Shown: positions 2,844-37,613, counted from the first letter of the stretch. The stretch is DNA of 39,208 bases from an uncultured bacterium (GCA_964543115.1 CAZIXI010000003.1:1-39208), one strand, 5' to 3'. The notes: generated by a model from the letters alone, not told the origin. Program-made: numbers and translations.

Positions 2844-2916
2844 AGCCGCGAACGTGAAACGTACGAATTAGCTGCTATAAATTACTAATTACAAAAATCC
2901 GAGTGAATTCGTGGCT
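2844..2916. repeat. AGCCAC-ended intergenic inverted-repeat element, copy A (degenerate)
   Basis: AGCCGCGAA (2844-2852) pairs 8/9 with TTCGTGGCT (2908-2916); internal ACGAATT unit; AT-rich centre. Confidence 0.6.
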
Positions 2917-2923
2917 AATAAAA

Positions 2924-3853
2924 TTATATCTTTTTCTCGATTACTTTTATTTTCTCCAAATCCGCCTGGCCGATACCCATCTCGCCGGCAATCCTAATAT
3001 ATTCTATCTTCTCCGGCTTAAGTCCAAATAAGGTTGTGCCAAAGGCATCAACCGCTACATGATCGTGACCGGCAACAATCTTATTCAGCACCTTGACCTC
3101 ACCCGGCCCCTTAGGGCCGTTGGTGAGCAAAATACGGGTACAATCCATCAGCACCAGGTCGGGCTTAACAAAGCTGCTGATATCGGCAATACACTGATTC
3201 AGGCCCTGCTGATGAAAGGCCCACCTATTTTTAACAACTCCCATATAATTCTTCATCGCCATGGTTAAGGTAGCGGCACTATGATCTTTGGCAATGGGCA
3301 TATTAATAAAACAATCCGCCGCCAAAATCTGCTTGGCCACATCCGCCTTTTTTAGTTTTCGCGCCTTGGCAATTCTGACCGGACTAAAATTATCTCCTTC
3401 GCTAAGCGCGATCATCTTACCGCCGGCCTTTTTCACCGCCTCTTCCACGCCGCTGATCCGGAAGGCACTCTTGTAATTGTCACAGGCATGGTCGATCACA
3501 TCCACCTTCGCCGCCCCGGCCTCCCGGCAAAGTTTAATCATTTCCGCTACTAATACCGGATGGGTATTACCCGCCTCTTCCGGGGTACGGGACCAGGAAG
3601 CATTAGGCTTAATTACAACATAACTGCCCTTTTTAACATATTTATTAATACCGCCTAAGGCCTCCACCGCTTGCTGCAGCAGCCTGGCATAATCAGTTCC
3701 TTCTAGAACATAGAGCTCAGACTGCGCCGATTCCGCAACTAATTTATCAGTCTTGCCAAAGATCCTTTTGGGCCCGGCCAGAGAACCCACTGCCGCTAAC
3801 GCCACGCCGGCCGCCAGCTGTTTCAGGAATTCCCGCCGCGTGTAGGCTTTCAT
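2924..3853 (-). CDS. DUF362 domain protein with twin-arginine (Tat) signal
   Basis: MKAYTRREFLK Tat motif; VVIKPN, NTHP, INMPIAKDH and TMAMKNYMG DUF362 motifs. Start moved from 3910 to ATG 3853 because GGAGG lies upstream and the longer extension runs through a repeat. Confidence 0.85.
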   Translation of the reverse strand: MKAYTRREFLKQLAAGVALAAVGSLAGPKRIFGKTDKLVAESAQSELYVLEGTDYARLLQQAVEALGGINKYVKKGSYVVIKPNASWSRTPEEAGNTHPVLVAEMIKLCREAGAAKVDVIDHACDNYKSAFRISGVEEAVKKAGGKMIALSEGDNFSPVRIAKARKLKKADVAKQILAADCFINMPIAKDHSAATLTMAMKNYMGVVKNRWAFHQQGLNQCIADISSFVKPDLVLMDCTRILLTNGPKGPGEVKVLNKIVAGHDHVAVDAFGTTLFGLKPEKIEYIRIAGEMGIGQADLEKIKVIEKKI

Positions 3854-3875
3854 AATAGCCTCCAGTTTTAATTTT

Positions 3876-3913
3876 AACGCAGAGACCGCAGACGAGCTTT
3901 GCTCGCGCAAAGA
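3876..3913. repeat. Nonamer array (AACGCAGAG/ACCGCAGA/CGCAAAGA) interrupted by a 13-bp mini-hairpin
   Basis: AACGCAGAG ACCGCAGA [CGAGC-TTT-GCTCG, 3893-3905] CGCAAAGA read directly. Confidence 0.55.
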
Positions 3914-3944
3914 TTTCTACGTTTATTCATTAATTAAACAGGAC

Positions 3945-4337
3945 CTATTTAATCTTCACACATTTTCCGGCTGCGGTTGCCACCAGACTGCCATCTGCCT
4001 TTTTGGCCTCCGCTTCCGTAAAAATCAATCTCCCCTGCTCTTTAACAATCCGGCTGGTAAACCTAATCTCTTCACCAATATAAACCGGTTTCTTTAGCCG
4101 GACAGAGAATTCCGCCGTAACCGCCTTCTTGCCCAAAAGCCAGGGCAGATTAACCAGCATTTCATCCAGTACTATACCAATTATCCCGCCATGAACAATA
4201 TCGGCATAACCCTGGTGTTTCTTTTCCGGCACAAAACTTGTATGCAGGATCTGTCCTGCTAAACGGAAATCCAGCTGCAGCCCAATCGGATTCTTCTTCC
4301 CGCAGACAAAACACATCCCGTCATCACGCAATTCCAT
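3945..4337 (-). CDS. PaaI-family (hotdog) thioesterase
   Basis: CFVCGxxNPxGL N-terminus; HQGY..IVHGGII..VLDE signature. Confidence 0.9.
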   Translation of the reverse strand: MELRDDGMCFVCGKKNPIGLQLDFRLAGQILHTSFVPEKKHQGYADIVHGGIIGIVLDEMLVNLPWLLGKKAVTAEFSVRLKKPVYIGEEIRFTSRIVKEQGRLIFTEAEAKKADGSLVATAAGKCVKIK

Positions 4338-5473: not shown

Positions 5474-6985
5474 ATGCATAAAATTTTAATTATTTTATTT
5501 TTCCTTCTCTCTCTTTCCGCTTTCGCCTTTGCCGGCAGCAGTACCAACTATACTATCTTAAACGATATGTTCACCGCCGGCAGCGCTCAAGGCCTTAACT
5601 CCGCTAATTACCTGGCAAATGACATTGTGGGAAACAGCACCGGACCCGGTGATTTTAGTTCCACTAACTACAGCGCAGAGGGCGGCACCCATGATTATAA
5701 CGACTCCACCGTCTGGTACCTGGCCGAGGGCTGTACACGCGGCTTTGACACCTATGTGCTCATTCAAAACCCCAACAGCACTACAGCAGAAATTCAGGCT
5801 ACTTTTATGGATGCCGACGGGAATACCGCGATAGTAACTCAAACTATTAACGCGACAGAAAGATATACGATCCATGTAAATAATGTCAGCGGCTTTGAAA
5901 ACTGTGATGTCTCCACCACAATTATTTCCACGAATCAAGTCCCGGTAAGGGTCGAACGGGCCATGTACTGGGACAGCGGCAGCCTTTCCTGGGCCGGCGG
6001 ACACGACAGTATTGGCGTTACCGCTCCCTCCACCACCTGGTATCTTGCCGAAGGCAATACCAATATTTTCGATGAATACGTACTGTTCCAGAACCCGAAT
6101 ACCGCTACCGCCTCGGTAACCGCTACTTTTATGGATGCTGACGGCAATACCCAGCAAGTTTCCTTTACCCTAGCCGGGCAAAGGCGATACACAATCCATG
6201 TAAATAATGTGGAAAATATGAATAACCGTGACGTCTCCACAAGTGTCTCCTCCGATGTTCCCATTAACGTGGAACGGGCCATGTACTGGAACAGCGGTGA
6301 TTACAGCTGGTGCGGCGGCCATGACAGTATCGGGGTAACCGCTCCAGCCACCAGCTGGTACTTGGCCGAAGGAAATACCGCCAGATTTGATGAGTATGTA
6401 CTATTCCTTAATCCCAACACCGCTAGCGCGTCCATTACCGCCACTTTTATGGATGCTGACGGCAACACCCAGCAGGTTGGCTTTACCCTGGCCGGACAAC
6501 GAAGATATACAGTTCATGTAAACAATGTAGACAACATGAGTAATCGCGATGTTTCCACAAGCGTGGCCTCAGATATCCCGATTATCGTTGAGCGTTCTAT
6601 GTACCTAAACAGCGGTAACCTTACCTGGGCCGGCGGCCATGCCACTGTGGGCATTCCCCTACCGGCAACTACCTGGTATCTGGCGGAAGGTAACACCAAT
6701 ATTTTCGATGAATATGTATTATTCCAGAACCCGAATACCGCGACCGCCTCTATTACCGCTACCTTTATGGATGCTGACGGCAATACCCAGCAGGTTTCCT
6801 TTACCCTGGAAGGGCAGCGGCGATACACTATCCATGTAAATAATGTTGAAAACATGAATAATCGTGATGTCTCAACAACAGTATCTTCCGATGTGGCCAT
6901 TAATGTGGAACGGGCCATGTACTGGAACAGCGGCGACTACACCTGGATTGGCGCACATAGCAGCCGCGGGATAAGCCAGGAATAG
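5474..6985 (+). CDS. Secreted protein with four WYLAEG...VERAMY repeats (DUF5719-like)
   Basis: Signal peptide (..SAFAFA); short N-terminal S-x-N-Y region; four 106-108 aa repeats with Trp codons at 5714, 6038, 6356 and 6674. Confidence 0.8.
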   Translation: MHKILIILFFLLSLSAFAFAGSSTNYTILNDMFTAGSAQGLNSANYLANDIVGNSTGPGDFSSTNYSAEGGTHDYNDSTVWYLAEGCTRGFDTYVLIQNPNSTTAEIQATFMDADGNTAIVTQTINATERYTIHVNNVSGFENCDVSTTIISTNQVPVRVERAMYWDSGSLSWAGGHDSIGVTAPSTTWYLAEGNTNIFDEYVLFQNPNTATASVTATFMDADGNTQQVSFTLAGQRRYTIHVNNVENMNNRDVSTSVSSDVPINVERAMYWNSGDYSWCGGHDSIGVTAPATSWYLAEGNTARFDEYVLFLNPNTASASITATFMDADGNTQQVGFTLAGQRRYTVHVNNVDNMSNRDVSTSVASDIPIIVERSMYLNSGNLTWAGGHATVGIPLPATTWYLAEGNTNIFDEYVLFQNPNTATASITATFMDADGNTQQVSFTLEGQRRYTIHVNNVENMNNRDVSTTVSSDVAINVERAMYWNSGDYTWIGAHSSRGISQE

Positions 6986-8968: not shown

Positions 8969-9028
8969 TAAAAATAATAAATTATTTAATTTAAAATTTA
9001 TATATATAAAATATAAAGCAGGTTTGTT

Positions 9029-12158: not shown

Positions 12159-12247
12159 AGCCACGGATTACACCGATTTCAATTATAATATTTTAAATCA
12201 GGGTTAATCATCAGTGAAAATCCGCGAGCGAAGCTCGATCAGTGGCT
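12159..12247. repeat. AGCCAC-ended intergenic inverted-repeat element, copy B, with nested GAA mini-hairpin
   Basis: AGCCACGGATT ACACCGATT ... AATCAGGG..ATCAGTG AAAATCCG [CGAGC-GAA-GCTCG 12225-12237] ATCAGTGGCT. Confidence 0.75.
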
Positions 12248-13554: not shown

Positions 13555-14997
13555 TTAAATCTCGGCCACAACCACCCGGTTGCGCCCTTCGCGTTTGGCC
13601 TGATAAAGGGCCCGGTCAGCACATTCGATAATTTTTATTCCCTGTTCGCCGTTGCGGGGATATTCCGCGATACCAATACTGATAGTTGCCCGCACGCCTT
13701 CGCGGCGAATAGAAAAATTCGATTCGCCAACCGCTCTGCGGATCGACTCAGCAATATCCCGCGCACCCTGCCGGGCAATATTGGGCAGTAAAACAATAAA
13801 TTCTTCTCCGCCATAACGGGCGGCAACTGGTTTTGTTACTGTCCCAGGCGAAGCCTGGGACAGTTCATCCTCAATCAATTGAGCAACTTTCTGAAGCACC
13901 TTATCCCCGACAGAGTGGCCATAGGTATCATTTAATTCTTTAAAGCTATCCAGATCCAATAAAAGAACGGAAAAGGACCCGCCCGAAAGCCTGGCCTCGG
14001 CAACCACCTGCTCCAGGGCCTCGTCAAAATATCGCCGGACATAAAGCTCCGTTAAACCGTCACGATTAGCCAGATGTTCCGTTTGTTTAAACAAATCAGC
14101 ATTATAAATAGTCAGGGCCGCTATATTAGCAATAATCGCCAGTAGGCGCAGATCATCAAGCGTAAAGGTATTCGCCTGAAAACTATCCACGCGAATAATA
14201 CCCATCATCTTGTCGGCGGTGGTTAATGGCGCCACAATCAGGCTCCTGGTTTTTGTGCCTGCCATAATCTGCTGAGTATTGAAACGATAGTCCTTGGCTA
14301 AATCAGTCACCAGCAACGGTTGCCGGTGCCGCATCGTCCAAAGATTGAATTCATCAGACTGCACAGAATCAGTCAGGGTAATTCCCCGGGAACTCTCCAA
14401 CACCTGAAGCTGCAATGACTGCAAATCTGCGCCTATCTCCCAAAGATAATAGACATCTCCGGTATCAATACTGCGCATGAGGTTATTCACAATCTGTTTG
14501 TTGATTTCCTTTGACGCGAGACTAAAGGCTGCCTCTTTAACCACTTCACTCAAATAACTAAAACGTTCGGTTTTCTTGTGATAAGACTCTTTTAAATGCT
14601 GCTGTTTACTATAATCCTGCAATAAAAGATTATAGTCCCGCTCCACATGTTCCAGCCTCAAATTATGTGCTGTGACTGCCACCTTTACCCGCTGTTGGCG
14701 ATTGTAGAGAGAAAGACCCAATAAAAAGGCCGGCAAAACAACTAAGAGATAAGACCCGTCACTAGCCGCTAAACTGTTATACAGGGCGACAAGCAAGGTA
14801 ATCAAGTAGGCAATCACACCCCCCCATAACCCCCAGACCGTCCAATTAATAATAATAAACAGGAGTAAGCTCCAGGTAAAAAAATGACGAAGGAAACAGG
14901 CAGAAGGATAGAACGCTACCAGTCGAAACACAAGGACAATTATAGCCGGCAAACCAACTAATGAAAGCACACGGAGAATGAGATTGAATCGTTTCAT
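13555..14997 (-). CDS. Membrane-anchored GAF-GGDEF diguanylate cyclase
   Basis: TM N-terminus; GAF (RSLIVAPL..MGII..F..DDLRLL); DGLT; DLDSFKELNDTYGHSVGD; ARYGGEEF. Confidence 0.92.
   Translation of the reverse strand: MKRFNLILRVLSLVGLPAIIVLVFRLVAFYPSACFLRHFFTWSLLLFIIINWTVWGLWGGVIAYLITLLVALYNSLAASDGSYLLVVLPAFLLGLSLYNRQQRVKVAVTAHNLRLEHVERDYNLLLQDYSKQQHLKESYHKKTERFSYLSEVVKEAAFSLASKEINKQIVNNLMRSIDTGDVYYLWEIGADLQSLQLQVLESSRGITLTDSVQSDEFNLWTMRHRQPLLVTDLAKDYRFNTQQIMAGTKTRSLIVAPLTTADKMMGIIRVDSFQANTFTLDDLRLLAIIANIAALTIYNADLFKQTEHLANRDGLTELYVRRYFDEALEQVVAEARLSGGSFSVLLLDLDSFKELNDTYGHSVGDKVLQKVAQLIEDELSQASPGTVTKPVAARYGGEEFIVLLPNIARQGARDIAESIRRAVGESNFSIRREGVRATISIGIAEYPRNGEQGIKIIECADRALYQAKREGRNRVVVAEI
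13838..13864. repeat. Perfect 27-bp hairpin inside the GGDEF coding sequence
   Basis: ACTGTCCCAGGC-GAA-GCCTGGGACAGT: 12-bp perfect stem, GAA loop. Confidence 0.85.
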
Positions 14998-17956: not shown

Positions 17957-18021
17957 AATCCGTTTAATGAATATTTAAAAGACGATACCTTGTAAATTAC
18001 TTAGATTGCCGCATTAGCCAA

Positions 18022-18903: not shown

Positions 18904-18919
18904 GTTTTATTTTTTTGTT

Positions 18920-19071
18920 GCCCCAAGCACAGCGAGGGGGACAGGCTCCTACAACCAACGGGCCGGGCAGTCTATATCCATTCCAATAATAGCAGTCTAT
19001 ATACATTCATATAATAGCAGCCCCGCGAAGCGGGGCAGTCCCAGCTTTGCTGGGGCAGGCCCGGCCCCTAC
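18920..19071 (-). repeat. GTAG-type REP hairpin with four units stacked in its loop, plus a second degenerate GTAG element
   Basis: Arms GGGCCGGGC (18960-18968) and GCCCGGCCC (19059-19067), then CTAC (19068-19071); GCAG at 18967, 18992, 19017, 19035, 19055; second CTAC at 18949-18952 next to GGGGACAG. Confidence 0.8.
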
Positions 19072-25640: not shown

Positions 25641-25696
25641 AGGAATACTCCTTTTAGGGTAGTGCCCCCGCTTTCTCCTAAAAGAAAAACGCAGAC

Positions 25697-27685: not shown

Positions 27686-27707
27686 CTAGACCTCGCTTGT
27701 TAAAATC

Positions 27708-28649
27708 TCAGTTTAACACCGGGCGGGAAAAATCTCCCACAGTATACTTATCCTGCTTTTTCTCTTCCGGAGAAGGCACGGCATAACTCAACTCTTCCAG
27801 AATATCATTTAGCTCAAGTACCGGCCGGGCACCATGCTTGATCAACACATTCGTACCCTGTGAAACCACCGTATCAATCCGGCCGGGAACGCTGAACACT
27901 TCTCTTCCCTGTTCCGCCGCTAACCGGGCAGTGATCAATGATCCGCTGCGGCTGCCGGCTTCCACCACCACTACCCCCAGGCATAGGCCGCTAATAATCC
28001 GGTTGCGTTTAGGAAAGTTATGGCGGTAAGGCGGTGTTCCCAGAGGAAATTCACTGATTACCGCTCCCGCCTTTATTATCTCGTCGCGCAGCTGCCGGTT
28101 TTCCGGCGGATAAATCCTGTCCACCCCGCACCCCAGAACAGCTACGGTTCGTCCCTGCCCGCCGAGCGCGCCCTGATGGGCAGCAGTATCAACGCCCCGG
28201 GCCAACCCGCTGACAATCGTAAAACCCCGATTAACCAGCTGCCCCGCCAGCCGCTGGGCCGTACTCAATCCATAATAGGAAGCACGCCGGGCGCCAACTA
28301 TGGCCAGCCAATAACAATCCTTTGACTGTATCTCCCCCCGCACATAAAGAGCCACCGGCGGATCATAAATCTCGCGCAATAACGCCGGATAATCAGCATC
28401 CTGAATCGTAACAATTTTTAGTTGATACTTTTCTATCAGTGTCAGTTCACGTTTTAAATCGAATAATTTCGCCCAGCCGCAAACGGTTTCGGCATTCTTC
28501 CTGCTGATACCCGCGACACCCGTTAACCTGTTTACAGAAGCACGAAAAATCTTATCCGGAGAATCATACTCTCCGAGTAGACGGTTAATCTTTACCGGCC
28601 CTAGATCCGGCAGGGCATTTAATATTAATAACGCTTCCTGATCATTCAT
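27708..28649 (-). CDS. dprA: DNA-processing protein DprA (short C-terminus)
   Basis: YPALLREIYDPP.ALYVRG, AIVGAR, IVSGLARGVD.AAH, FPKRNRIISGL, SGSLITA, GREVFSVPG. Confidence 0.95.
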   Translation of the reverse strand: MNDQEALLILNALPDLGPVKINRLLGEYDSPDKIFRASVNRLTGVAGISRKNAETVCGWAKLFDLKRELTLIEKYQLKIVTIQDADYPALLREIYDPPVALYVRGEIQSKDCYWLAIVGARRASYYGLSTAQRLAGQLVNRGFTIVSGLARGVDTAAHQGALGGQGRTVAVLGCGVDRIYPPENRQLRDEIIKAGAVISEFPLGTPPYRHNFPKRNRIISGLCLGVVVVEAGSRSGSLITARLAAEQGREVFSVPGRIDTVVSQGTNVLIKHGARPVLELNDILEELSYAVPSPEEKKQDKYTVGDFSRPVLN

Positions 28650-28661
28650 AAATAAAAAAGC

Positions 28662-28737
28662 TTAGCCACAGATTACACTGATTTATTTTCTAGTATTTTT
28701 CATATAATCAGTGAAAATCTGTGAAATCTGTGGCTAA
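28662..28737. repeat. AGCCAC-ended intergenic inverted-repeat element, copy C (cleanest)
   Basis: Perfect 13-bp IR TTAGCCACAGATT (28662-28674) / AATCTGTGGCTAA (28725-28737), with inner ACACTGATT / AATCAGTG and AATCTGTG units. Confidence 0.85.
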
Positions 28738-28741
28738 AAAA

Positions 28742-29335
28742 TTATTTCCTGTTTTTTTTAGCACTAAACAATTCCAGTTGTCCACCCTTTAATATATCAT
28801 ACACCTTAAACAATCTGATCAGCTGCAGCGTATCAGATTCCAGATAATTCCTGTTTATTCTGACCATTTTTGTTAAGGATTTTAAGATCAGCTTAAATTC
28901 TATCACTCCATCAACACCCTTTTCCCTCAAAATATCAATACTGCGGGCCTTCATTTCCCGGTCAGCCGGTAAACAGGGGACAACGAGTATTCTGGCAAAA
29001 TCTTTTGTGCCAAAAAACTGGGCAGCCAGCTTGATTACTCCCGGCGAAATAAACCGGAATATTTTTGGTGATCCGGTCAGGACAGAAGGGCAAAAAGTTT
29101 CCGTGTGCCAGCCCTTGACCTTAACTATAGCCCGGGACAATTTATCGATGTCATCGGCACTGAGCACGAAAGACCTCAACCGATCAGGTTGAGGTTTCAG
29201 ATTAAGCACTGCCAAATCAGCTTCAGAAATTTTTTCCCGGTCCTTTTTTGTCGGAATATATTTGCGGTTTATCTTTACCAGAAACTGATGGGCCTCAAAA
29301 AACTCCCTTACTAATTCGATTCCAACATCAGCCAT
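28742..29335 (-). CDS. Hypothetical protein, possible PD-(D/E)xK-like fold, C-terminal QLELF
   Basis: 197-aa ORF with GGGAG upstream and tight operon spacing; LVREFFE..F.V, EADL, IVKVKGWH, QLELF. Confidence 0.65.
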   Translation of the reverse strand: MADVGIELVREFFEAHQFLVKINRKYIPTKKDREKISEADLAVLNLKPQPDRLRSFVLSADDIDKLSRAIVKVKGWHTETFCPSVLTGSPKIFRFISPGVIKLAAQFFGTKDFARILVVPCLPADREMKARSIDILREKGVDGVIEFKLILKSLTKMVRINRNYLESDTLQLIRLFKVYDILKGGQLELFSAKKNRK

Positions 29336-29362
29336 AATAACTCCCGCTAGATCTCTTTTGAC

Positions 29363-30505
29363 CTAAGAAATAATCTCTTTAAGGACCTCTCGCACATCCG
29401 CTTCCGGTACTTTGTCAGTAAGCTTTACTTTGCCGATCTTCTCGGCCAAAACAAACCTTAGCTTGCCGGCAACCGCTTTCTTATCATGCCGAAGCATGGC
29501 CAAAACTTTATCTTCTAGCCTGGCGTCCCGCCCCCGACACGTCGGGGACAGCCTTAGAGGAATGGCTATAGACTGACCGGCTGTCTCTAAGTGTACCGGT
29601 AAACCCAATGCCTTAAGCAAATCAATCTGACTATCCCGCGAAGCGCCATTAAGATAGCCTAATCGGCAGGCCAATTTTGCCGCCGCCGCCATACCGATAG
29701 CAACCGCTTCTCCATGAGTCAGTTCCTGATACTCGGTTAATGTCTCTAAGGCATGGCCGATTGTATGGCCATAATTAAGAATTGCCCGCAAACCGCTAAG
29801 CTCACGCTCATCCTTACTAACAACCTCAGCCTTAATCCGGGCACAGGTGGTAATTATATCCAGCCACAAATCTTTTTCAAGCTTAAATAATTTTTCCTGC
29901 TGTTCCGCCAGCATATTGAACAGGCGCCGGTCCCTGATCACACCATACTTAACCACCTCCGCCAATCCAGTACGTATCTCTTTCTGCGAAAGAGTACTAA
30001 GTGTTTGGACGTCGGTATAGACAAACCTGGGCTGCCAGAAACTACCCACGAGATTTTTACCCTGAGAAAGATTTACCCCTGTCTTACCGCCAATACTGCT
30101 ATCCACCTGGGCCATCAATGTTGTGGGTAACTGCAGATAATCAATTCCCCGCATATAGGTAGCGGCAATAAATCCAGTCAGATCGCCCACCACTCCTCCA
30201 CCGCAGGCAATGAGAAAACTTTTCCTGTCTAATCCCCAATCCACTAATTGCTGATAAATCTTATCCGCGGTACTCAGGGATTTCGATTCTTCCCCCGGCC
30301 GCACCGCATAAACCGGCAGATCATAACCCGCCCGGGCCAGCTCGTCTTTTAACTTGTTTACCCACAAACCATTAACCGTCTCATCGGTAATAATCCCGCC
30401 GCTCTTGCCTAACGGCTTCAGCAATTCCGCCAGACCGGCAAAAATATCATATCCTATATATATAGGATAGCTGCGCTCAGCCAAGGAAACAGATATTTTT
30501 TTCAT
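29363..30505 (-). CDS. aroB: 3-dehydroquinate synthase, with an in-frame insertion near the C-terminus
   Basis: GEESKS, GGGVVGDL.GF.AATYMRG, PTTLMAQVDSSIGGKTGVN, LNYGHTIGHALE, HGEAVAIGM, DKK. Confidence 0.96.
   Translation of the reverse strand: MKKISVSLAERSYPIYIGYDIFAGLAELLKPLGKSGGIITDETVNGLWVNKLKDELARAGYDLPVYAVRPGEESKSLSTADKIYQQLVDWGLDRKSFLIACGGGVVGDLTGFIAATYMRGIDYLQLPTTLMAQVDSSIGGKTGVNLSQGKNLVGSFWQPRFVYTDVQTLSTLSQKEIRTGLAEVVKYGVIRDRRLFNMLAEQQEKLFKLEKDLWLDIITTCARIKAEVVSKDERELSGLRAILNYGHTIGHALETLTEYQELTHGEAVAIGMAAAAKLACRLGYLNGASRDSQIDLLKALGLPVHLETAGQSIAIPLRLSPTCRGRDARLEDKVLAMLRHDKKAVAGKLRFVLAEKIGKVKLTDKVPEADVREVLKEIIS
29521..29583. repeat. Hairpin plus ~24-bp unit inserted in frame in aroB
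   Basis: CCCCGAC-AC-GTCGGGG (29532-29547) followed by GGAATGGCTATAGACTGACCGGC, which matches the minus strand of the xerC-upstream element at 21/23. Confidence 0.75.
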
Positions 30506-30521
30506 TTATTATCCCCTATTC

Positions 30522-30566
30522 GGGAGGGCACCTGCCTGCCGGCAGGCAGGCAAGGCCCTCCCCTAC
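30522..30566 (-). repeat. GTAG-type REP hairpin with a 20-bp perfect palindrome in its loop
   Basis: Minus strand: GTAG GGGAGGGC CTTG [CCTGCCTGCCGGCAGGCAGG] T GCCCTCCC, starting immediately after the aroK TAG. Confidence 0.82.
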
Positions 30567-31079
30567 CTATTTGTTTCTTGATACTATCAGTGCCTTAATA
30601 TCTTCCACCACCTGTTGGATAGATTTCCCCGTAGTATCCACTTGCAGTTCAATCTTATCATAGAATGGTTTTCTAAAAGCCAGCAATTCCTTAATCTTAA
30701 GCAGAGGATCGGCAACCTTCAGTAAGGGCCGCTGCGTTTCCCGCGCTACCCGGCGATAGATTTCCTCAGGCGCTGCCTGCAAACAAATCAAAATCCCGCT
30801 TTCTCCCAGGGCCTGAATATTGTCTTCAGCTAAAACCACTCCCCCGCCGGCAGAAATAACCAGTCCCTGCCGGGCAGATAATTGCCTGGCCATTTCTTTC
30901 TCCAGCCTGCGAAAACAGGCCTCCCCGCGTGTGGCAAAGATATCATTAATCGTTATTTTTTCCTGATCTTCTATCAGGGCATCCATTTCCACGAATTCCC
31001 TGCCAAGGTCCTGCGCCAACCTCTGCGCTACGGCAGTTTTGCCCGTACCCATGAAGCCAAGAAGAACAATATTTTTCAC
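30567..31079 (-). CDS. aroK: Shikimate kinase
   Basis: NIVLLGFMGTGKT, D..IE, GE..FR.LE, GGGVV, RPLL; GTG start. Confidence 0.95.
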   Translation of the reverse strand: MKNIVLLGFMGTGKTAVAQRLAQDLGREFVEMDALIEDQEKITINDIFATRGEACFRRLEKEMARQLSARQGLVISAGGGVVLAEDNIQALGESGILICLQAAPEEIYRRVARETQRPLLKVADPLLKIKELLAFRKPFYDKIELQVDTTGKSIQQVVEDIKALIVSRNK

Positions 31080-31082
31080 TCC

Positions 31083-32201
31083 TTAACCCAATCCCTTTAC
31101 ATACTGCCGGTAGGCGGCTTTTGTGGCCCTAAGATTGTCGCCGCCGAATTTCTCCAGCATCGCCCGGCACAGTTCCACACCAACCATCGCCTCTCCGATT
31201 ACCGCCGCACTGGGAACGGCACAGACATCAGATCTTTCCCGAGCCGCCCGAACAGTTTTTTTATTTTTAATATCTACGGAAGCCAGCGGTTTACCCAGCG
31301 TGGCAATCGGTTTCATAACCGCCCGTAACATTATCGGTTCACCATTACTGATCCCGCCTTCAATCCCTCCACAGCGATCTGTCTTTCGATAAAAACCCAT
31401 CGGTTTTTTATAATAGATCGGATCATGAACCTTTGAACCGGGCAGACCCTGCATCCGAAACCCTAAACCAATCTCCACGCCCTTAATCGCCGGAATACTC
31501 ATCATCACCGCCGCCAACCGGGCATCCAAACGCTGGTCCCACTGCGCGTAACTACCCAGACCCGGCACAACACCGACCGCAATAACCTCAAAGGTTCCAC
31601 CCAGAGTATCTTTATCTTTTGCCGCCTTTTTAATCCGGGCAATCATTTTCTGTTCCGCTTTTTTGTTTACACACCTGACCAATGAACCTTCCGCACGAAT
31701 AAGAATATCCTGAATCTTCACACCTTCTGCTTCCGCCTTCACTCCGCCCAGCTCGACAACATGACTAAATATTCCTATCCCCAACTCTCTCAATAGTAAC
31801 CGGCAGACACTCCCGATGGCCACCCGGATCGCCGTTTCTCTGGCACTGGCCCGTTCTAACACACTGCGAATATCATCCAATCCGTATTTAAGCCAGCCCG
31901 CCAGATCCGCGTGTCCCGGCCGGGGAGCAGTCACCGCAGGCAGGGTATCAATTTTAAAATCCTTATTCTCAATATAGAGGGCCAAAGGACTGCCGATCGT
32001 TTGCCCCTTCCGGATCCCCGCTAAAATGCGCACTTTATCCTGTTCTATCTGCATCCGGGCCCCGCGGCCATAACCGGTCTGCCGCTGCTTTAATTGCCGA
32101 TTAATGAAATCAATATCTAATTTCAAGCCTGCCGGAATGCCTTCCAGAACCCCTACTAATCCGGCTCCATGAGACTCTCCTGCTGTAAACCAGCGAAACA
32201 T
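31083..32201 (-). CDS. aroC: Chorismate synthase
   Basis: MFRWFTAGESHG, PRPGHAD, ERASARETA, GGIEGGISNG, ERSDVCAVP. Start placed at ATG 32201 (GAGGAGG upstream); the ORF-track extension is translated repeat DNA. Confidence 0.96.
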   Translation of the reverse strand: MFRWFTAGESHGAGLVGVLEGIPAGLKLDIDFINRQLKQRQTGYGRGARMQIEQDKVRILAGIRKGQTIGSPLALYIENKDFKIDTLPAVTAPRPGHADLAGWLKYGLDDIRSVLERASARETAIRVAIGSVCRLLLRELGIGIFSHVVELGGVKAEAEGVKIQDILIRAEGSLVRCVNKKAEQKMIARIKKAAKDKDTLGGTFEVIAVGVVPGLGSYAQWDQRLDARLAAVMMSIPAIKGVEIGLGFRMQGLPGSKVHDPIYYKKPMGFYRKTDRCGGIEGGISNGEPIMLRAVMKPIATLGKPLASVDIKNKKTVRAARERSDVCAVPSAAVIGEAMVGVELCRAMLEKFGGDNLRATKAAYRQYVKGLG

Positions 32202-32217
32202 AAAATCCTCCTCTTCC

Positions 32218-32263
32218 AATTGCGGAATGCGGATTTCGGATTGCGGAATTAGGAATTCCGCAA
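32218..32263. repeat. GATTGCG-type heptamer array with inverted end
   Basis: AATTGCG GAATGCG GATTTCG GATTGCG GAATTAG; perfect 10-bp IR TTGCGGAATT-AGG-AATTCCGCAA (32241-32263). Confidence 0.8.
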
Positions 32264-32296
32264 AACTCAATCAATTAATAGAAATTCTAGTATCTT

Positions 32297-33085
32297 TCAA
32301 AACAGATTTAAGTACCAATGCACAATCTCCGGTCCCCAAAAAAGACTGACCAGCGCCCCGAGACAGAGAAAGGGGCCAAAAGGGATTTTCCCCTTTAAAG
32401 AAGCCTTGCCCAGCGCTAATAACACCACAGCAGCCAGAGTACCCAACAGAGAAGAAGTAAAGATAGTGAATAACGCCCAGGGCCAGCCGAGAAAGGCACC
32501 GATCATGGCCAGCAACTTTACATCACCCATGCCCATGGCTTCTTTTTTTAATAAATAAGAAGCACTAACCGCGATCAAATAAAGCACGCCGCCGGCAATA
32601 ATCACCCCCAGAAATGACCGGTAAAGCCCCTGCCACCAGCTGTTGGCCTGCAAAAGCGGCGGATACAAAGCGGCAAAAATCAATCCGCAGCCAATGCCGG
32701 CAAAATTTATCACATCGGGAATAATGAGAAATTCCAGATCAACAAACGTGGCAACAATAAAGAGACAGACTAATACCCCATAAGCAGCAACAACCAATGG
32801 ACTCTCAGCGCCAAAGCACCACCAGAGCAAACACAATAAACAAGCAGTCAAAAGTTCAACGAAAAAATAACGAAAACTTATTCTGCCTTTACAGTAGCGG
32901 CACACACCGCCTAAAAGAATATAACTTAGTAACGGTATATTATCATACCAGGGAATCATCTGGCGGCAATGCGGACAGAACGACCGGCTCAGGCCGATCT
33001 TCTCTTCCCGCGGCAGGCGGTAGATTAACACATTGAGAAAACTGCCAATACACAGACCAAAAATAAATAGAATTAAATAAATCAT
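32297..33085 (-). CDS. pilD: Prepilin peptidase/N-methyltransferase (A24)
   Basis: GSFLNVLIYRLP, SFCPHC, WYDNIPLLSY...G.CRYC, VDLE..IIPD, MGMGDVKL, IPFGPFL. Confidence 0.93.
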   Translation of the reverse strand: MIYLILFIFGLCIGSFLNVLIYRLPREEKIGLSRSFCPHCRQMIPWYDNIPLLSYILLGGVCRYCKGRISFRYFFVELLTACLLCLLWWCFGAESPLVVAAYGVLVCLFIVATFVDLEFLIIPDVINFAGIGCGLIFAALYPPLLQANSWWQGLYRSFLGVIIAGGVLYLIAVSASYLLKKEAMGMGDVKLLAMIGAFLGWPWALFTIFTSSLLGTLAAVVLLALGKASLKGKIPFGPFLCLGALVSLFWGPEIVHWYLNLF

Positions 33086-33110
33086 AGTGTTTTAGATTAT
33101 CGTCTAAAAT

Positions 33111-34808
33111 TCACTCCCAGGCTACCCGCAGAACCTCATCCAGCGTGGTTACCCCGGCATAGACCTTAAGCAGTCCATCTTCTTTAAGGGTTTTCATTCC
33201 CAACTGGCGGGCCCGTTTTTTTAGCTCCGTACTGGGTATCTTCTGATAAATCAATTTCCTTAACTCTTCCGTAATCACCAATAATTCAAATATTCCCACT
33301 CGGCCCCGGTACCCGGTACCATTACAGTATTCACATCCTTTACCATACCAAAACTGTTGCTCCTGCTGCCCCAGTTTCTCCAAATCAATATCAATGGCCT
33401 TCAATTTATCCCGCGGAGGCGTATAGGGACTCTTACATTTAGGACAGATTACCCTCACCAGACGCTGGGCCAGGATCCCCTGCACGGAAGAAGCCACCAG
33501 AAAAGGTTTAACTCCCTGATCGATTAATCTGGTTATTGCACTGGCCGCGTCATTAGTATGCAGGGTACTGAAAACCAGATGACCGGTCAATGAGGCATGA
33601 ATCGCGATATTAGCCGTTTCTAAATCCCTGATCTCACCGATCATAATCACATCCGGAGCCTGCCGGAGCATCGAACGAAGGATATTGGCAAAAGTAAAAT
33701 CAATATCTTCATTCACCTGTACTTGATTGATACCGGTTAATAAATATTCAACCGGATCCTCAACCGTAATGATCTTTCTATCCGGCCGGTTAATATGGTT
33801 CAGACAGGCATACAGAGTGGTTGTTTTACCGCTGCCGGTAGGGCCGGTAACCAGCAGTATGCCATTGGGTAAATTAATCAATTGACGAAATCTTTTCTCC
33901 TCTTCACTCATTAATCCCAGTTGCGGCAATCCCAGCAAGAGGCTTTCCCGGTCCAATATCCGCATCACTACACATTCACCGTGATTACCCGGAATGGTAG
34001 AAACCCGCAGATCAATATCCCGCCCCAAGACCTTCAATTTAATTCGGCCATCCTGCGGCAGGCGCTTTTCATCAATACTCATATTGGCCATAATCTTTAT
34101 CCGGGAAATAATGGAATTCTGCAAATGTTTGGGCGGGGCCTCTACTTCTTCCAGCATCCCGTCAATCCGGTAACGGACACGAAATTTATGTTCCAGCGGT
34201 TCCAGATGAATGTCACTAGCCCGGCGGCGAAAGGCCTCGGCAATAACCAGGCTAACCAGTCTGATAACCGGCGCTTCTTCTTCGATTTCTTCCTTTAATT
34301 CCTCTACTTCACCATAGACTATACCGGTAGAACTTACCCCTTTTTCTCCTTCTTCGGCAGTTTTGCCCAGCACCTCTTGATAACCATAATGTTTACGCAG
34401 GGACCACTGGATATCAGCGGGCGTTGCCAATACCGGATCAATAAGCAGTCCAAGGGCCAGGGCCAGGTTGTCCACAACCTCTAATTTGTAGGGATCGGCA
34501 ATAGCCACCTGAAGAGACTCACCTTCTTTCTTCAGGGGAATAACTTCATACCGCCGGGCAAGGGCACCGGGAAGAAGTTTAAGCATTGAGCGCGAAACCT
34601 CCTTATCACGCAAACTGATAACTTCCATATTAAATTTCGCCGCCAAAACATCCCGGATCTGCGCCTCTTCAACCATTTTCAACTGCAGGGCGGTCTCCAC
34701 CATTTCTCTGCCGGAACGCAGGGTCATCTGCTCCAGCTGCTGCACCTGCTCAGCGCTTAACAACCCCCGTTCCTTTAACGTATTAATAATTAATCCTTCA
34801 CGAGACAT
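33111..34808 (-). CDS. GspE/PilB-family secretion/pilus assembly ATPase
   Basis: ASDIHLEP, RLPQDGR, TGPTGSGKTTTLY, TVEDPVE, LRQAPDVIMIGEIRD, TGHLVFSTLHTN, CPKC..CEYC. Start placed at ATG 34808 because the extension is repeat DNA. Confidence 0.93.
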   Translation of the reverse strand: MSREGLIINTLKERGLLSAEQVQQLEQMTLRSGREMVETALQLKMVEEAQIRDVLAAKFNMEVISLRDKEVSRSMLKLLPGALARRYEVIPLKKEGESLQVAIADPYKLEVVDNLALALGLLIDPVLATPADIQWSLRKHYGYQEVLGKTAEEGEKGVSSTGIVYGEVEELKEEIEEEAPVIRLVSLVIAEAFRRRASDIHLEPLEHKFRVRYRIDGMLEEVEAPPKHLQNSIISRIKIMANMSIDEKRLPQDGRIKLKVLGRDIDLRVSTIPGNHGECVVMRILDRESLLLGLPQLGLMSEEEKRFRQLINLPNGILLVTGPTGSGKTTTLYACLNHINRPDRKIITVEDPVEYLLTGINQVQVNEDIDFTFANILRSMLRQAPDVIMIGEIRDLETANIAIHASLTGHLVFSTLHTNDAASAITRLIDQGVKPFLVASSVQGILAQRLVRVICPKCKSPYTPPRDKLKAIDIDLEKLGQQEQQFWYGKGCEYCNGTGYRGRVGIFELLVITEELRKLIYQKIPSTELKKRARQLGMKTLKEDGLLKVYAGVTTLDEVLRVAWE

Positions 34809-34812
34809 AATC

Positions 34813-34895
34813 GATTGCGGATTGCGGACCCTCTGCGAGGGCTGCAAAAAGCCTGTTTTAGATTGCGGATTTGCAGCTATTCAAAATTCGCAATT
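34813..34895. repeat. GATTGCG heptamer array interrupted by a 13-bp hairpin; inverted arm overlaps the larC stop
   Basis: GATTGCG GATTGCG GA [CCCTC-TGC-GAGGG 34829-34841] CTGC...GATTGCG GATTTGC ... ATTCAAAATTCGCAATT. Confidence 0.7.
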
Positions 34896-36013
34896 AAATC
34901 TTTAACCGCTATTCCCCTTTTAGCCGCCAGTTTTTTACAATCTTTGTATTCCGGTTTTATTTTTAGTATCTTATCGCCATAACTGCCGACCTTTGCCTTT
35001 ACCTTACCAAACGGAGTAGAGACCGCACGGAATTTCCTGTGTAACGTCCTGCGTTCCGCCTGCCAATAACGCAGGCCAAAACTGGTTGTTTCTTTAAAAA
35101 CAACAGCGATAATTTTTTCTAAAGAAGAAACCGGACAGAGCACCGTCACCTGAATCCCCGGCCGATTTTTTTTCGCCTGCACGGGAACCCAGAAAACATC
35201 CAGGGCACCCTGCCGGAACAGGGATTCCATCAACCCTTCATATAACTGCGGGTTCATATCATCTATATTTGTCTGTACCTGATAAATAATATCCGCTTCC
35301 GCCAGGTCCTTTTTTACCGGCTGACCGATAACAACCCGCAGGGAATTGGACAGATCAGCATCATCCCGGCTGCCGATACCATAACTGATCCCGGTCAGCT
35401 TCATCCGTGGTAATGCGCCAAACCGCAGAGCAAATCCCTTGAGCAAAACCGCCCCGGTCGGGGTAACCATTTCCTTGTCTCTCCCCGTTCCCTCAACCCG
35501 GGCATCCATCCCGGCCAGCAACTCCAGGGAGGCCGGCGCCGGTACGGAACTTATACGCAGCGGAGAGGCATAGATCTTTTCCAGGCTCAGATAATGCACG
35601 CCAATCACCGCGCCAATAATATCAATAATCGAATCAACCGCCCCTACTTCATGAAAATGAACGGTTTCCGGCCGGCCGCCGTGTACCCGCGCCTCCGCCC
35701 CGGCCAGCAGCTGAAAAAGTGAAACGCTTTTATCCTTAATTACCGGAGGAAGTTTACTGCCGGCAATGATACGTAAAATATCCCTCAGATACCGTTCTTT
35801 TTGCCGCTTCTTGTTTATCTTAACAATAAATCTCTTTCCCCTAATGCCTTTACGCTGTTCCGCCCGGCTGCTGAGTTCGTACCCGGTTAACGGTAATTTG
35901 CGTAATTCCCCTTTAAGATAAGCCAGCGGCAGACCGGCATCAAGCAGAGCGCCAAGAAACATATCCCCGCTAATTCCGGCATAACAATCTAAATAAGCAA
36001 TTTTTCCAGTCAT
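34877..36013 (-). CDS. larC: Nickel-pincer cofactor Ni-insertion protein LarC
   Basis: YLDC.AGISGDMFLGAL, AEARVHG...VHFHEVGAVDSIIDI, VPAPA, EMVTPTGA, TNIDDMNPQ, KKNRPG, ETTSFGLR, KPEYKDC. Confidence 0.92.
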   Translation of the reverse strand: MTGKIAYLDCYAGISGDMFLGALLDAGLPLAYLKGELRKLPLTGYELSSRAEQRKGIRGKRFIVKINKKRQKERYLRDILRIIAGSKLPPVIKDKSVSLFQLLAGAEARVHGGRPETVHFHEVGAVDSIIDIIGAVIGVHYLSLEKIYASPLRISSVPAPASLELLAGMDARVEGTGRDKEMVTPTGAVLLKGFALRFGALPRMKLTGISYGIGSRDDADLSNSLRVVIGQPVKKDLAEADIIYQVQTNIDDMNPQLYEGLMESLFRQGALDVFWVPVQAKKNRPGIQVTVLCPVSSLEKIIAVVFKETTSFGLRYWQAERRTLHRKFRAVSTPFGKVKAKVGSYGDKILKIKPEYKDCKKLAAKRGIAVKDLIANFE

Positions 36014-36054
36014 TTTTTACCCAATAAATATCTATTAACAGCAAAAACTACATA

Positions 36055-36810
36055 TCACTTTTCACTCGCTAAACGGTTGATCAAGCCGGCGGCATAGCCG
36101 GCGCCAAAGCCATTATTGATGTTTACCACTACCACCCCGGCCGCACAACTATTAAGCATGGTCAATAACGGGGCAATCCCCTGGAAACTTGCACCATACC
36201 CCACACTTGTAGGCACAGCGATTACCGGCCGGCCCATTAATCCGGCCACCACTCCCGGCAGCGCCCCTTCCATTCCGGCCACGGCCACAATCACCCGGGC
36301 CCGCTCCAATTGATCCGTATAGGCAAACAGGCGGTGAATCCCGGCAATCCCCACATCATAAAGGCGCTCTACCCGCGCACCGACTAATTCCGCCGTTACC
36401 GCCGCCTCTTCCGCCACCTGCCCGTCTGCTGTCCCCGCACTAACCACCGCTACTAAACCCTGCCGCTGCAATTTCTTTTGCACCAGCGTAATCAAATCAG
36501 CATCTCGATTATAATGGGCGCGGGGGAATTTCTGTTTAACCGCGCGGTAAGTTTTTTCATCTGCGCGGGTAGCCAGAATATTACCGCCGCTCCGGGCCAG
36601 TTCCCTGAAAATTGCCACTACCTCTAGAGTCTTTTTACCCTGGCAATAGATCACTTCGGGAAAACCAGTACGTAATGAACGGTGCGTATCAACCTTGGCA
36701 AACCCGATATCCTGAAAAGGCAACCGCTGCAGTTCCCGCAGGGCCTGATCAATGGACATTGTCTTTTTTTGAACCGCTGCTAATAATTTTTTTATACTGT
36801 CCGGATGCAT
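36055..36810 (-). CDS. larB: Nickel-pincer cofactor biosynthesis protein LarB
   Basis: FAKVDTHR..RTGFPEVIY, SAGTAD..VAEEA, DVGIAGIHRL, AGMEGALPGV, PVIAVPTSVGYG, MLNSCA, NINNGFGA. Confidence 0.95.
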   Translation of the reverse strand: MHPDSIKKLLAAVQKKTMSIDQALRELQRLPFQDIGFAKVDTHRSLRTGFPEVIYCQGKKTLEVVAIFRELARSGGNILATRADEKTYRAVKQKFPRAHYNRDADLITLVQKKLQRQGLVAVVSAGTADGQVAEEAAVTAELVGARVERLYDVGIAGIHRLFAYTDQLERARVIVAVAGMEGALPGVVAGLMGRPVIAVPTSVGYGASFQGIAPLLTMLNSCAAGVVVVNINNGFGAGYAAGLINRLASEK

Positions 36811-36839
36811 AATTATGCTCTCTGGCTGATAATCACTTG

Positions 36840-37511
36840 TTACTTCACCACCATATGCCTGATAATATCCCCCACATTCTCTATCCGGTCAGCAATCCGG
36901 GTAATCTTATCCGCCACCTCCACAAGAAAAAATATCGTCACCGGATCCAATTGCTTCTCCAGGGCGAACAACACCTTGAGGAATTCCAGCTCCAAAGTTT
37001 CAACCTGATCCTTGCCCTGCTGAGTATCGGCGACTAACCCGGATAATTCTTTAAATTCCGCCGGAGTATATTCCTTTACTGACATTTGGCAAAACAACTT
37101 TACGCCGCAATTAAGGTTATCCATCATCTTAATCACCCCGGCTCCCAGCCGTTTTAAATGATCCTGAAGTTTTTTGGGAACCTTGGTTTTCCGTAAACTA
37201 AATAACTTAACAATATCCTCACAACAATCAGCGATTCCATCCTGCTGCCGCAGCCAGGCCATAACATCTGAGCGCTGAACAGAAGAAAAAATACTGCGGG
37301 TAAGCCGCTGACGAATATTCTCTTTGATGGCGTCGGCATCCTTCTCCAGCCGGCTGATTTTCTTTGAAAGTTTCTGCAATTTGGCATCGTCCTGGGCCAG
37401 GAAACTTTCTATACCCTGCCGCAGCAAATCCACACAATCACTGGCCTTAGCCAGATGCTCCCAGAGCGGACCCCAGGCCGATCGTCCCCAAAACCCACCA
37501 ATAATCCGCAT
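36840..37511 (-). CDS. DUF47 / TIGR00153 PhoU-like protein
   Basis: LEKDADAIK..IR..L, QDGIADCCED, IADRIENVGD; ATG 37511 with GGAGG upstream. Confidence 0.85.
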   Translation of the reverse strand: MRIIGGFWGRSAWGPLWEHLAKASDCVDLLRQGIESFLAQDDAKLQKLSKKISRLEKDADAIKENIRQRLTRSIFSSVQRSDVMAWLRQQDGIADCCEDIVKLFSLRKTKVPKKLQDHLKRLGAGVIKMMDNLNCGVKLFCQMSVKEYTPAEFKELSGLVADTQQGKDQVETLELEFLKVLFALEKQLDPVTIFFLVEVADKITRIADRIENVGDIIRHMVVK

Positions 37512-37529
37512 ATTTCCTCCGTTTATTTT

Positions 37530-37613
37530 AGCCACGAATTCGCACGAATTCACACGAATTCACACGAATTATTAAAAATAATATTAAAAATTAAATTCGT
37601 GATAATTCCTGGC
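37530..37613. repeat. AGCCAC-ended intergenic inverted-repeat element, copy D (10-bp tandem units)
   Basis: AGCCACGAATT CGCACGAATT CACACGAATT CACACGAATT, AT-only core, then AATTCGTG AT AATTCCTGGC. Confidence 0.82.

Follow-up and report, generated by a model that had tools for sequence, protein, structure and literature searches.

The stretch of DNA analysed here (the window, 39,208 nucleotides) is the entire contig C3 of the metagenome-assembled genome of an uncultured marine bacterium. This genome comprises 3.38 Mb in 349 contigs (each named C plus a number), with 45.7% G+C, and is 86.8% complete. The window carries a layered system of short repeats. Non-coding modules of 18-25 nt, headed by CAG and of fixed polarity, lie in and beside larger repeats; we call the modules guests and the larger repeats hosts. 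The window probably samples a lineage-specific, modular mobile DNA of the single-strand kind represented by repetitive extragenic palindromes (REP), bacterial interspersed mosaic elements (BIME) and REP-associated tyrosine transposases (RAYT), with modules of unusually small size. An earlier, sequence-only reading of the window had described small units nested in other repeats and inside genes, and had proposed that an activity acting in trans inserts them. Its observation is confirmed, and its interpretation is partly supported.

Module A (CAGTCTATAnCCATTCCnATAATRG) is an AT-rich, non-palindromic 25-mer. Allowing for up to one mismatch, 125 sites match its 17-mer core, 64 in forward and 61 in reverse orientation, against 0 in the reversed control. 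The module had 0 matches in 40 other genomes of the phylum and 0 in two public collections, of genomes and of metagenomes. The phylum was represented by 79 genomes, and the comparison genomes belong to the same phylum at closest. Module B begins with CAG[TC]CCC, followed by a hairpin. Its stem is variable but complementary, and its loop is mostly GAA, GGA or AAA. Hairpins of the C-GAA-G type are very stable DNA mini-hairpins. B-type hairpins occupy 218 sites, compared with 38 in the reversed genome. The 13-mer hairpin CGAGCRAAGCTCG, CGAGC[G/A]AAGCTCG, has 24 copies where about 0.2 are expected (14 and 10 copies of the two forms, 0.1 expected of each). Small units of near-identical sequence are thus dispersed genome-wide in unrelated contexts, and the further copies that the sequence-only reading called for do exist.

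According to our own reading of the contexts, the 13-mer hairpin lies inside another repeat in 16 of its 24 copies. On C23 it occupies the exact centre of a minimal palindrome of the AGCCAC family (described below), which exists in empty form on C301. It is also present in AGCCAC arms (C3, C39, C195), in ACGAGAA, AACCAGA, CTATCGA and GGGTCAA arrays, in the loop of a CCGCGG hairpin (C286), and in other palindromes (C161, C325).

The A and B modules form 210 clusters, whose types include AB (43), AABB (8), ABB (7), BAB (5) and ABAB (3). The commonest dispersed form is an A+B pair of 43-47 nt (43 of the 210 clusters). The unit size of 13-27 bp proposed earlier holds for single modules. In every single-strand cluster type with both modules, the first A has B on its 3' side. 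Modules follow each other without spacers, and 121 of 130 junctions abut within 1 nt. On the A strand, B loops are purine-rich in 82 of 102 cases and pyrimidine-rich in 13. The order, the abutting junctions and the asymmetry of the loops give the composite a polarity. This asymmetry also fits a single-strand intermediate. The modules have no coding capacity, and therefore any mobility would be in trans. The AABB arrays share one of two inner pairs, consisting of A as CAGTTTATATCC or TATACATTCATATAAT, plus CAGCCCCGCGAAGCGGGG, while the outer modules vary. It is the outcome expected if an AB pair had been inserted between the A and the B of another.

The majority of arrays follow a purine run in plain DNA between genes. 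Immediately before A stands G in 69 of 97 cases and A in 23, usually after GG. Among 70 arrays ending in B, CAG comes next in 28 (9% expected), and CAG or CAA in 40 (17% expected). Neither terminal inverted repeats nor a consistent target duplication were seen at the A/B junctions and flanks. The arrangement differs from that of miniature inverted-repeat transposable elements (MITEs): the ends of A and B are unrelated, and the flanks share at most CA(G), in 28-40 of the 70 arrays. B hairpins do not have the form of intrinsic terminators, being followed by G, A or the next module, without a T-run. With respect to the flanking genes, the orientation of A/B arrays was ++ in 30, -- in 24, -+ in 15 and +- in 10, with 7 at contig edges. 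This unbiased orientation speaks against promoter or terminator roles of A/B. A/B arrays lie right against the 3' ends of tRNA genes at C4:9666-9935 and on C8, and both orientations occur.

The hosts are three families of GTAG-tagged palindromes, AGCCAC inverted arrays of 9-10-mers, and arrays of heptamers or 9-mers. A GTAG tetranucleotide stands 5' of a high-copy palindrome in the three GTAG families, as in REP/RAYT systems. The first GTAG family, ATGTAGGAGGTC[A/T]GACCTCCTACAT (GTAGGAGGTC), has 27 arm matches genome-wide. Its hairpins are paired 60-100 nt apart on C4, C31, C313 and C140, and each hairpin is symmetric by itself. The second family, GTAGGGGCCGGGC-CTG-CCCGGCCC, has 17 matches to a degenerate pattern, and the third, GTAGGGGAGGGC-CTTGYG-CCCTCCC, also has 17. 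The loop of the ATGTAGGAGGTCAGACCTCCTACAT hairpin is CAG/CTG as well, and hairpins nested in hairpins occur on C180, C4 and C313.

The AGCCAC family has about 25 loci genome-wide, with window members at 2844, 12159, 28662 and 37530. Its plan is TTTTTAGCCAC, 9-10-mer repeats, an AT-rich loop, inverse repeats and GTGGCTAAAAA. More precisely, the order is a T-run, AGCCAC, 2-4 copies of a 9-10-mer (e.g. CACGGATTA), the AT-rich loop and the inverse. These elements are not terminator-like, since on both strands the T-run comes before the palindrome and an A-run after it. The arms vary among loci (GGATT, AGATT and GAATT cores) yet are complementary within each locus. It means either concerted change within the locus or the existence of many sub-families. 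Examples of this divergence are at 12159, 28662 and 37526 in the window and on C6, C58, C130 and C246. The outer TTAGCCACA of these loci may be one base off the DnaA-box consensus. The tandem arrays consist of heptamers or 9-mers such as GATTGCG, GCGACTA, GGGTCAA, GTGACARAG and GCAGAGNNN.

A longer, MITE-like element is also present on C8, C20, C118, C127, C134, C181, C256, C286 and other contigs. It has TTCTGCAAAATAG-type ends and CCGCGG-TCAAG-CCGCGG / GGATCCCGCGG hairpins, and its 12-mers occur about 30-36 times. Three of its copies carry the same A/B insert, and one has the 13-mer hairpin in a loop.

The evidence for insertion comes from hosts that exist both empty and filled. The palindrome GGGCCGGG-CAG-GCCCGGCCC is empty on C6, C11, C39, C84, C217, C262 and C307. 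It is filled with 2-4 CAG-headed modules on C3 (in the window), C5, C14, C39, C98 and C273. Read as the GTAGGGGCCGGGC palindrome, its empty loop is CTG, and each unit of the filled copies ends in CTG. Since the modules begin with CAG, every internal junction reads CTG on the GTAG strand. A second palindrome, GGGAGGGCA-CAAG-GCCCTCCC (loop CTTGYG on the GTAGGGGAGGGC strand), is empty at at least 11 sites. A/B modules fill it on C18 (two), C105 and C274; on C3, C46 and C331 its content is a 20-nt palindrome. The polarity of the modules relative to GTAG is identical in 10 of 10 A/B-filled hosts. The earlier proposal of insertion into pre-existing palindromes is supported in that the units sit in the loops of palindromes that also occur empty.

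The window has one filled copy of each palindrome. Twelve stretches of the window were folded as single-stranded DNA and compared with shuffles (z). The palindrome GTAGGGGCCGGGC...CCCGGCCC at 18960-19072 (-; z -2.5 and -2.2) holds four modules in its CTG loop, all on the plus strand. They are the outer A (CAGTCTATATCCATTCCAATAATAG, 18968-18992), an inner pair of 43 nt (18993-19035) and the outer B (CAGTCCCAGCTTTGCTGGGG, 19036-19055), a variant typical of palindrome-hosted arrays. The inner pair consists of an A variant of the TATACATTCATATAAT type (18993-19017) and B CAGCCCCGCGAAGCGGGG (19018-19035), and recurs at the A|B junction of other arrays (AABB, 8 loci). The GTAG of this palindrome shares one base with the stop codon of gene 19071-25640. 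The palindrome GTAGGGGAGGGC...GCCCTCCC at 30520-30566 (-; z -4.8) has a perfect 20-nt palindrome (30531-30550) in its loop and ends 16 nt before the aroB start codon. Both palindromes, the first within the stretch 18920-19072, have their GTAG on the minus strand.

The association with palindromes was measured on 101 A-containing arrays and shifted controls. An immediately flanking inverted repeat of at least 8 bp was found for 8 of 101 arrays, against 0.2% of 1946 controls. Arrays splitting a direct repeat of at least 8 nt were 7 of 101, against 0.7% of 1952 controls. Nesting in palindromes is thus strongly enriched. However, it is a minority habit, most arrays being in plain stretches between genes.

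Guests are also tolerated in frame within genes, as had been claimed. In aroB, an A+B pair at 29516-29575 (-; A at 29552-29575, hairpin at 29530-29551, limits good to about 3 nt) is read as QSIAIPLRLSPTCRGRDARL. It corresponds to an exact 20-residue insert of AroB with respect to 9 of 9 relatives (43-49% identity). AroB relatives at 38-47% identity are spread over many phyla, and the best one in the public metagenome collection is 37% identical. In a GGDEF gene, a solo B-type hairpin, CTGTCCCAGGC-GAA-GCCTGGGACAG, with a 12-bp stem lies in frame at 13838-13862 (-; z -7.4) and encodes LSQASPGT. It matches a 7-aa gap with respect to the neighbouring paralogue and a 6-aa gap with respect to WspR. 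These two loci are inserts when compared with relatives. The third coding locus named by the sequence-only reading, 21997-22032, is a run of 4.6 copies of the heptamer TCGTCGC inside the gene for a 2189-aa protein. Genome-wide, 15 of 101 arrays lie in spanning open reading frames (ORFs), compared with 74% of random positions. Of these 15, 12 are in sense orientation with a stop-free frame.

These features would be explained by the chemistry of a REP-associated Y1 (HUH) tyrosine transposase. In passages of PMC3333891, the E. coli enzyme TnpAREP is described as needing a 5' GTAG and a folded single-stranded REP. Its cleavage at C|T (the bar marks the cut) is reported there for inverted REPs, for linkers and for sites hundreds of bases away on single-stranded circles, and both cleavage and end joining were shown in vitro. 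RAYTs are likewise described as carrying out cleavage and strand transfer (in part of PMC8266576). In our proposal, the enzyme would bind the folded single-stranded GTAG hairpin, cleave at C|T sites close by and link the ends through strand transfer. In this manner, it would move modules with C|TG at their bounds in trans, excising and pasting them in a single orientation where a C|TG site is exposed, for example in a hairpin loop or between the A and the B of a previous insert. As every insertion would restore the site, stacks (AABB, ABB, ABAB) could accumulate. Composites may sometimes be copied whole, and arrays may also grow by slippage. The copies that survive selection would be those in hairpin loops, in gaps between genes and in protein loops that permit them.

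Candidate enzymes are present. The earlier statement that no enzyme is in view applies to the window and not to the genome, which has two RAYT-like Y1_Tnp genes that have GTAG palindromes or inverted repeats on their flanks. Both encode the motif H-hydrophobic-H (HYH and HFH) and YIHxNPV. The gene on C161 (323 aa) scores 62.3 bits with Pfam Y1_Tnp and 82.3 bits with NCBIfam REP_Tyr_transpos (cut-off 80). It is flanked by 26-nt inverted repeats starting with GTAG, and just these two copies exist in the genome. The gene on C140 (249 aa) scores 39.3 bits with Y1_Tnp and 39.7 with REP_Tyr_transpos, under the cut-off. It has the ATGTAGGAGGTCAGACCTCCTACAT hairpin (27 arm matches genome-wide) on both sides. 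The genome agrees with REP/RAYT systems, the TIRYT form included, in having a Y1 HUH gene of the RAYT clade and in the repeats that flank the two Y1 genes.

The flanking repeats of the C161 gene (860-894 and 1867-1960) contain GGGTCAR. Heptamer arrays of this kind are at 14 loci, 4 of them with a hairpin of the 13-mer type; GGGTCAR is a possible link between this Y1 enzyme and the heptamer-array family. A DnaA-like C-terminal domain was considered for the 323-aa protein and rejected, since Pfam offered for it nothing but a sub-threshold Myb-like match of 16.9 bits (cut-off 27). Y1_Tnp genes are present in 66 of the 79 phylum genomes, with up to 20 matches in one, and in 1 of 9 genomes of family f4. 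Many of these open frames have about 230 or 320-350 aa, like the C140 and C161 genes.

A bolder version of this proposal is that each 18-25-nt module, and likewise the AB pair of 43-47 nt, is a transposition unit in its own right, the smallest known, which a REP-bound Y1 enzyme that recognises the host hairpin moves as a single strand from one C|TG site to another. We put it forward tentatively, as rather doubtful. If the hairpin and not the passenger were recognised, the vicinity of a REP and C|TG at both ends could be enough to turn any short sequence into a passenger. The non-palindromic A, the stacking inside REP loops and the in-frame additions to proteins would then find an explanation.

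Several observations weigh against the reading of the window as RAYT-type mobile DNA. The A/B modules flank neither Y1 gene, and no enzyme is linked to A/B. The genes between neighbouring arrays are housekeeping only and include no enzyme candidate. The enzyme census is itself incomplete, given the completeness and fragmentation of the genome. The A/B modules have no GTAG tag: they start with CAG[TC]C, and the bases before B are ATAG or ATGG. For this reason, we do not file them as REPs, only as likely passengers of REP chemistry. CAG stands at the far end of only 28 of the 70 arrays ending in B. In the MITE-like hosts on C8, C20 and C181, the same A/B variant was copied whole, and the claim of single-unit insertion does not hold for such composites. 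Together with one B variant shared by the palindrome hosts, it means that part of the nesting may be inherited. The bias of strand with respect to GC skew was not significant (57 vs 39, p = 0.08; 46 vs 36 for intergenic arrays), in a test that is uninformative because local skew follows the gene strand. All 17 GTAGGGGAGGGC hairpins point GTAG-first toward a downstream ORF; for 13 of them, 12-20 nt that include a GGAGG-type site separate the hairpin from the start codon. This fixed place suggests a selected RNA or DNA function of these hosts. Finally, no polymorphic site was seen in public contigs, and present-day mobility is hypothetical.

The public contigs come from seven runs of two studies (marine and seawater metagenomes) in which parts of the window are present with a depth near 3. 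A joint from 18990 to 19034, in contigs of runs X1 and X2, leaves out exactly the 43-nt inner pair. This joint is no evidence of an empty allele, because its shorter side has 27-32 nt and paralogous loci are so arranged. Other joints of run contigs over 18001-38000 have sides of less than 35 nt, in repetitive coding DNA.

The GTAGGGGAGGGC-CTTGYG-CCCTCCC loci are at 30520-30566 in the window and on C18, C36, C67, C97, C105, C142, C158, C173, C180, C231, C287 and C331. The 5' arm of the hairpin resembles a Shine-Dalgarno site, and the 3' arm resembles the complement of such a site. It may be a translation or mRNA-stability element. A genome of the same phylum and another family (G048) has a GTAGGGGAGGGC-type GTAG hairpin 14 times, with the loop CGCCGT. 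There, it is half of a head-to-head pair (…GTCGGCCCCTAC|GTAGGGGAGGGC…) within a longer conserved element, and has no fixed relation to start codons.

Other explanations have to be weighed against these data. It is unlikely that the nesting is mostly apparent, with a few composites (a palindrome with its loop content, or the AABB block of four modules) that arose once and spread whole or by gene conversion between repeats, slippage adding ABAB forms, and single units of 13-25 nt not being mobile. The identical and unusual A/B variant of the three MITE-like hosts agrees with such a history. So do the three identical AB units in tandem on C32, the inner pairs shared by AABB arrays, and the B type CCCAGC-TTT-GCTGGG, or a near variant, that ends 9 of 10 palindrome-hosted arrays. 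However, the same A+B(TTT) content is found in two palindrome families, GGGCCGGG and GGGAGGGC, and one and the same inner pair is enclosed by different outer modules, in hosted and in unhosted arrays. The solo B of the GGDEF gene and the AB pair of aroB have no host at all, and the 13-mer hairpin sits in at least seven unrelated types of host repeat.

We consider it improbable that the repeats are selected cis-elements and not mobile, that is, intercistronic RNA hairpins for the stabilisation or processing of polycistronic mRNA, tuners of translation in 5'-UTRs (untranslated regions) or DNA structures bound by a host protein. Selection and local duplication would then account for the recurrence of similar sequences. 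The position of the repeats gives this idea its substance: they fill 9 of the 12 co-directional gaps of the window, its AGCCAC elements stop 8-18 nt short of start codons, and the GTAGGGGAGGGC hairpins have the placement described above. On the other hand, A/B arrays have no preferred orientation relative to genes, B hairpins are without a T-run, and modules lie in frame inside aroB and the GGDEF gene. None of the 40 other phylum genomes searched and neither of two public collections contains the A unit, and no Rfam family matched in the window. More improbable still is mobility through another agent, such as an unassembled transposase, the XerC/D-like recombinase next to the largest array, a small GIY-YIG nuclease, or hairpin fold-back replication or repair. 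An incomplete genome leaves room for it, as do three GIY-YIG matches, two Y1 genes that lack A/B modules on their flanks, and a Phage_integrase-family gene (18022-18903) at 17 nt from a repeat-bearing gap. Nevertheless, the dprA-topA-xerC-type cluster around this recombinase gene makes a housekeeping role probable, and no TnpB-type or IS110-type gene was found in the genome. The terminal inverted repeats and consistent target duplication that most other transposase classes leave are not seen either. RAYT-type mobility of small modules is the reading that we retain as the probable one.

With respect to the window as a whole, the ORF list and our reading of the sequence place structured repeats in 9 of 12 co-directional gaps of at least 60 nt; the gaps 8969-9028, 17957-18021 and 38559-38622 have no such repeat. 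All nine intergenic loci described from the sequence alone are present, and most co-directional gaps do hold a repeat, as stated then. The five interruptions are also real: the 13-mer CGAGC[TTT/GAA]GCTCG at 3893 and 12225, the four modules at 18968-19055, the palindrome at 30531-30550, and CCCTCTGCGAGGG at 34829. DNA folding gave z values of -2.2 to -7.4 for 7 of the 12 stretches. Weak values (-0.4 to -1.5) were obtained for the stretches at 2844, 3872, 34810 and 29520. Rfam 15 gave 0 matches at the gathering score across the whole window.

The AGCCAC members of the window differ in their state. The one at 2844-2916 (AGCCGCGAAC...GAATTCGTGGCT; z -1.5) is degenerate and lies 12 nt upstream of the start of gene 1687-2832 (-). 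The element at 12159-12246 (z -2.6) has the 13-nt hairpin CGAGCGAAGCTCG (12225-12237) in its right arm, and this arm context recurs on C195 with an AAA-loop variant. The element at 28662-28737 (z -6.4) is intact, with 23-nt arms that are 91% complementary and an AT-rich loop of 30 nt. At 37526-37618 (z -3.7), the left arm holds 3.8 copies of the 10-mer CACGAATTCA.

The loci at 3876, 32218 and 34813 are arrays of 7-9-mers. At 3872-3920 (z -0.4 for the whole), 9-mer units of the GCAGAG type are broken by the 13-nt hairpin CGAGCTTTGCTCG (3893-3905). A GGAATGC/GGATTGC heptamer array with an inverted partner (TTGCGGAATT-AGG-AATTCCGCAA) occupies 32219-32272 (z -2.6). Likewise, a GATTGCG heptamer array at 34813-34876 (z -0.9) is broken by CCCTCTGCGAGGG-CTGCAAAAAGCCTG (at 34829), a unit that also interrupts a CTATCGA array on C41.

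The genes of the window are ordinary chromosomal ones, most of them on the minus strand. They encode Fe-S, DUF362, K+ channel, two GGDEF, LpxK, KdtA, XerC/D-type recombinase, the 2189-aa protein, TopA, DprA, AroB, AroK, AroC, PilD and PilB. The gene of the XerC/D-type tyrosine recombinase (18022-18903, -) starts 17 nt from the gap with the largest module stack. In four genes (2924-3910, 31083-32270, 33111-34847 and 36840-37553), the longest-ORF start swallows a repeat. Starting from the inner ATG, these repeats fall between genes. The 12-mers present at least 6 times cover 23% of coding and 27% of non-coding DNA, a comparison that was dropped because its threshold is too loose for a 3.4-Mb genome. 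Two coding tandem repeats are also present. The first (5954-6940, in gene 5474-6985) has a 318-nt unit repeated 3.1 times, with a motif that recurs in many genes of the genome. The second (24754-25025) has a 24-nt unit repeated 11.5 times, inside the gene for the 2189-aa protein.

Compared with the REP, BIME and REPIN (paired REP) systems and the RAYTs of E. coli, Pseudomonas and Stenotrophomonas, this genome is alike in its GTAG palindromes in gaps and in a Y1 HUH gene with its own GTAG hairpins. It also has mosaic arrays of palindromic and non-palindromic motifs without target duplication. On the GTAG strand, its module junctions fall at C|T, where E. coli TnpAREP cuts according to PMC3333891. 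The differences are that the stacking modules have no GTAG, that A is a non-palindromic, AT-rich 25-mer, and that no RAYT is flanked by the modules. Moreover, the loop of a host REP contains modules in direct orientation and not inverted REP pairs joined by a linker. A REPIN is a pair of inverted REPs around a short spacer that replicates as a single unit.

The idea put forward by the sequence-only reading has precedents of the same kind. Sections of Di Nocera et al. 2013 (PMC3733652) describe REPs inside longer palindromes (A. variabilis, T. roseum, H. neapolitanus), REPs in genes, and mosaic arrays (BIME and neisserial mosaics). The same sections describe RAYT-like genes flanked by GTAG REPs or by long inverted repeats (TIRYT), and both forms fit the two Y1 genes found here. 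In the cases given in those sections the REP is the guest, whereas here it is the host, with smaller modules as guests and up to four per loop. What differs from known systems is that a REP hosts smaller guests, one of them non-palindromic, up to four per loop and with fixed polarity, and that these guests are also present in core enzymes. A narrow search of the open-access literature found no description of this arrangement.

With respect to in-frame tolerance, passages of PMC3733652 describe the Rickettsia palindromic elements as palindromic repeats tolerated in frame in housekeeping genes. Here, the inserts have 21-60 nt and are built of modules that also stack between genes. The Rickettsia elements have a size of roughly 100-150 bp. 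MITEs and palindrome-associated elements derived from IS200/IS605 are similar by analogy in being non-autonomous, with the enzyme in trans, and a hairpin-guided single-strand chemistry is plausible. Unlike MITEs, A/B lack terminal inverted repeats and target duplication, their A end forms no hairpin, and they measure 18-47 nt against the 70-300 bp given in part of PMC3733652.

For module size, the nearest precedent, by analogy, might be the small dispersed repeats (SDR) of cyanobacteria. Those of Nostoc and relatives (Elhai 2008) are reported to be non-autonomous and mobile, to measure 21-27 nt and to be nested in heptamer arrays and in each other, some of them in genes, with no enzyme named. 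They would be similar in size and nesting, while the phylum and the sequences differ. The fixed CAG/CTG junction, the hosting in REP loops and the visible candidate Y1 enzymes would set the present system apart.

Debate on how REPs spread still draws chiefly on the biochemistry of E. coli and on population data from Pseudomonas. This genome provides a natural record of such spread, with empty and filled hairpins, guests bounded by the dinucleotide cut by the RAYT of E. coli, a fixed polarity and visible successive stacking. The cut-and-paste of very small passengers by a RAYT-type enzyme becomes a concrete idea, testable at C|TG. A practical warning for annotation is that longest-ORF starts take in repeats in this genome. 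Likewise, the tolerance of 21-60-nt inserts in core enzymes (AroB and a diguanylate cyclase) bears on gene calling and on the evolution of protein loops in uncultured lineages.

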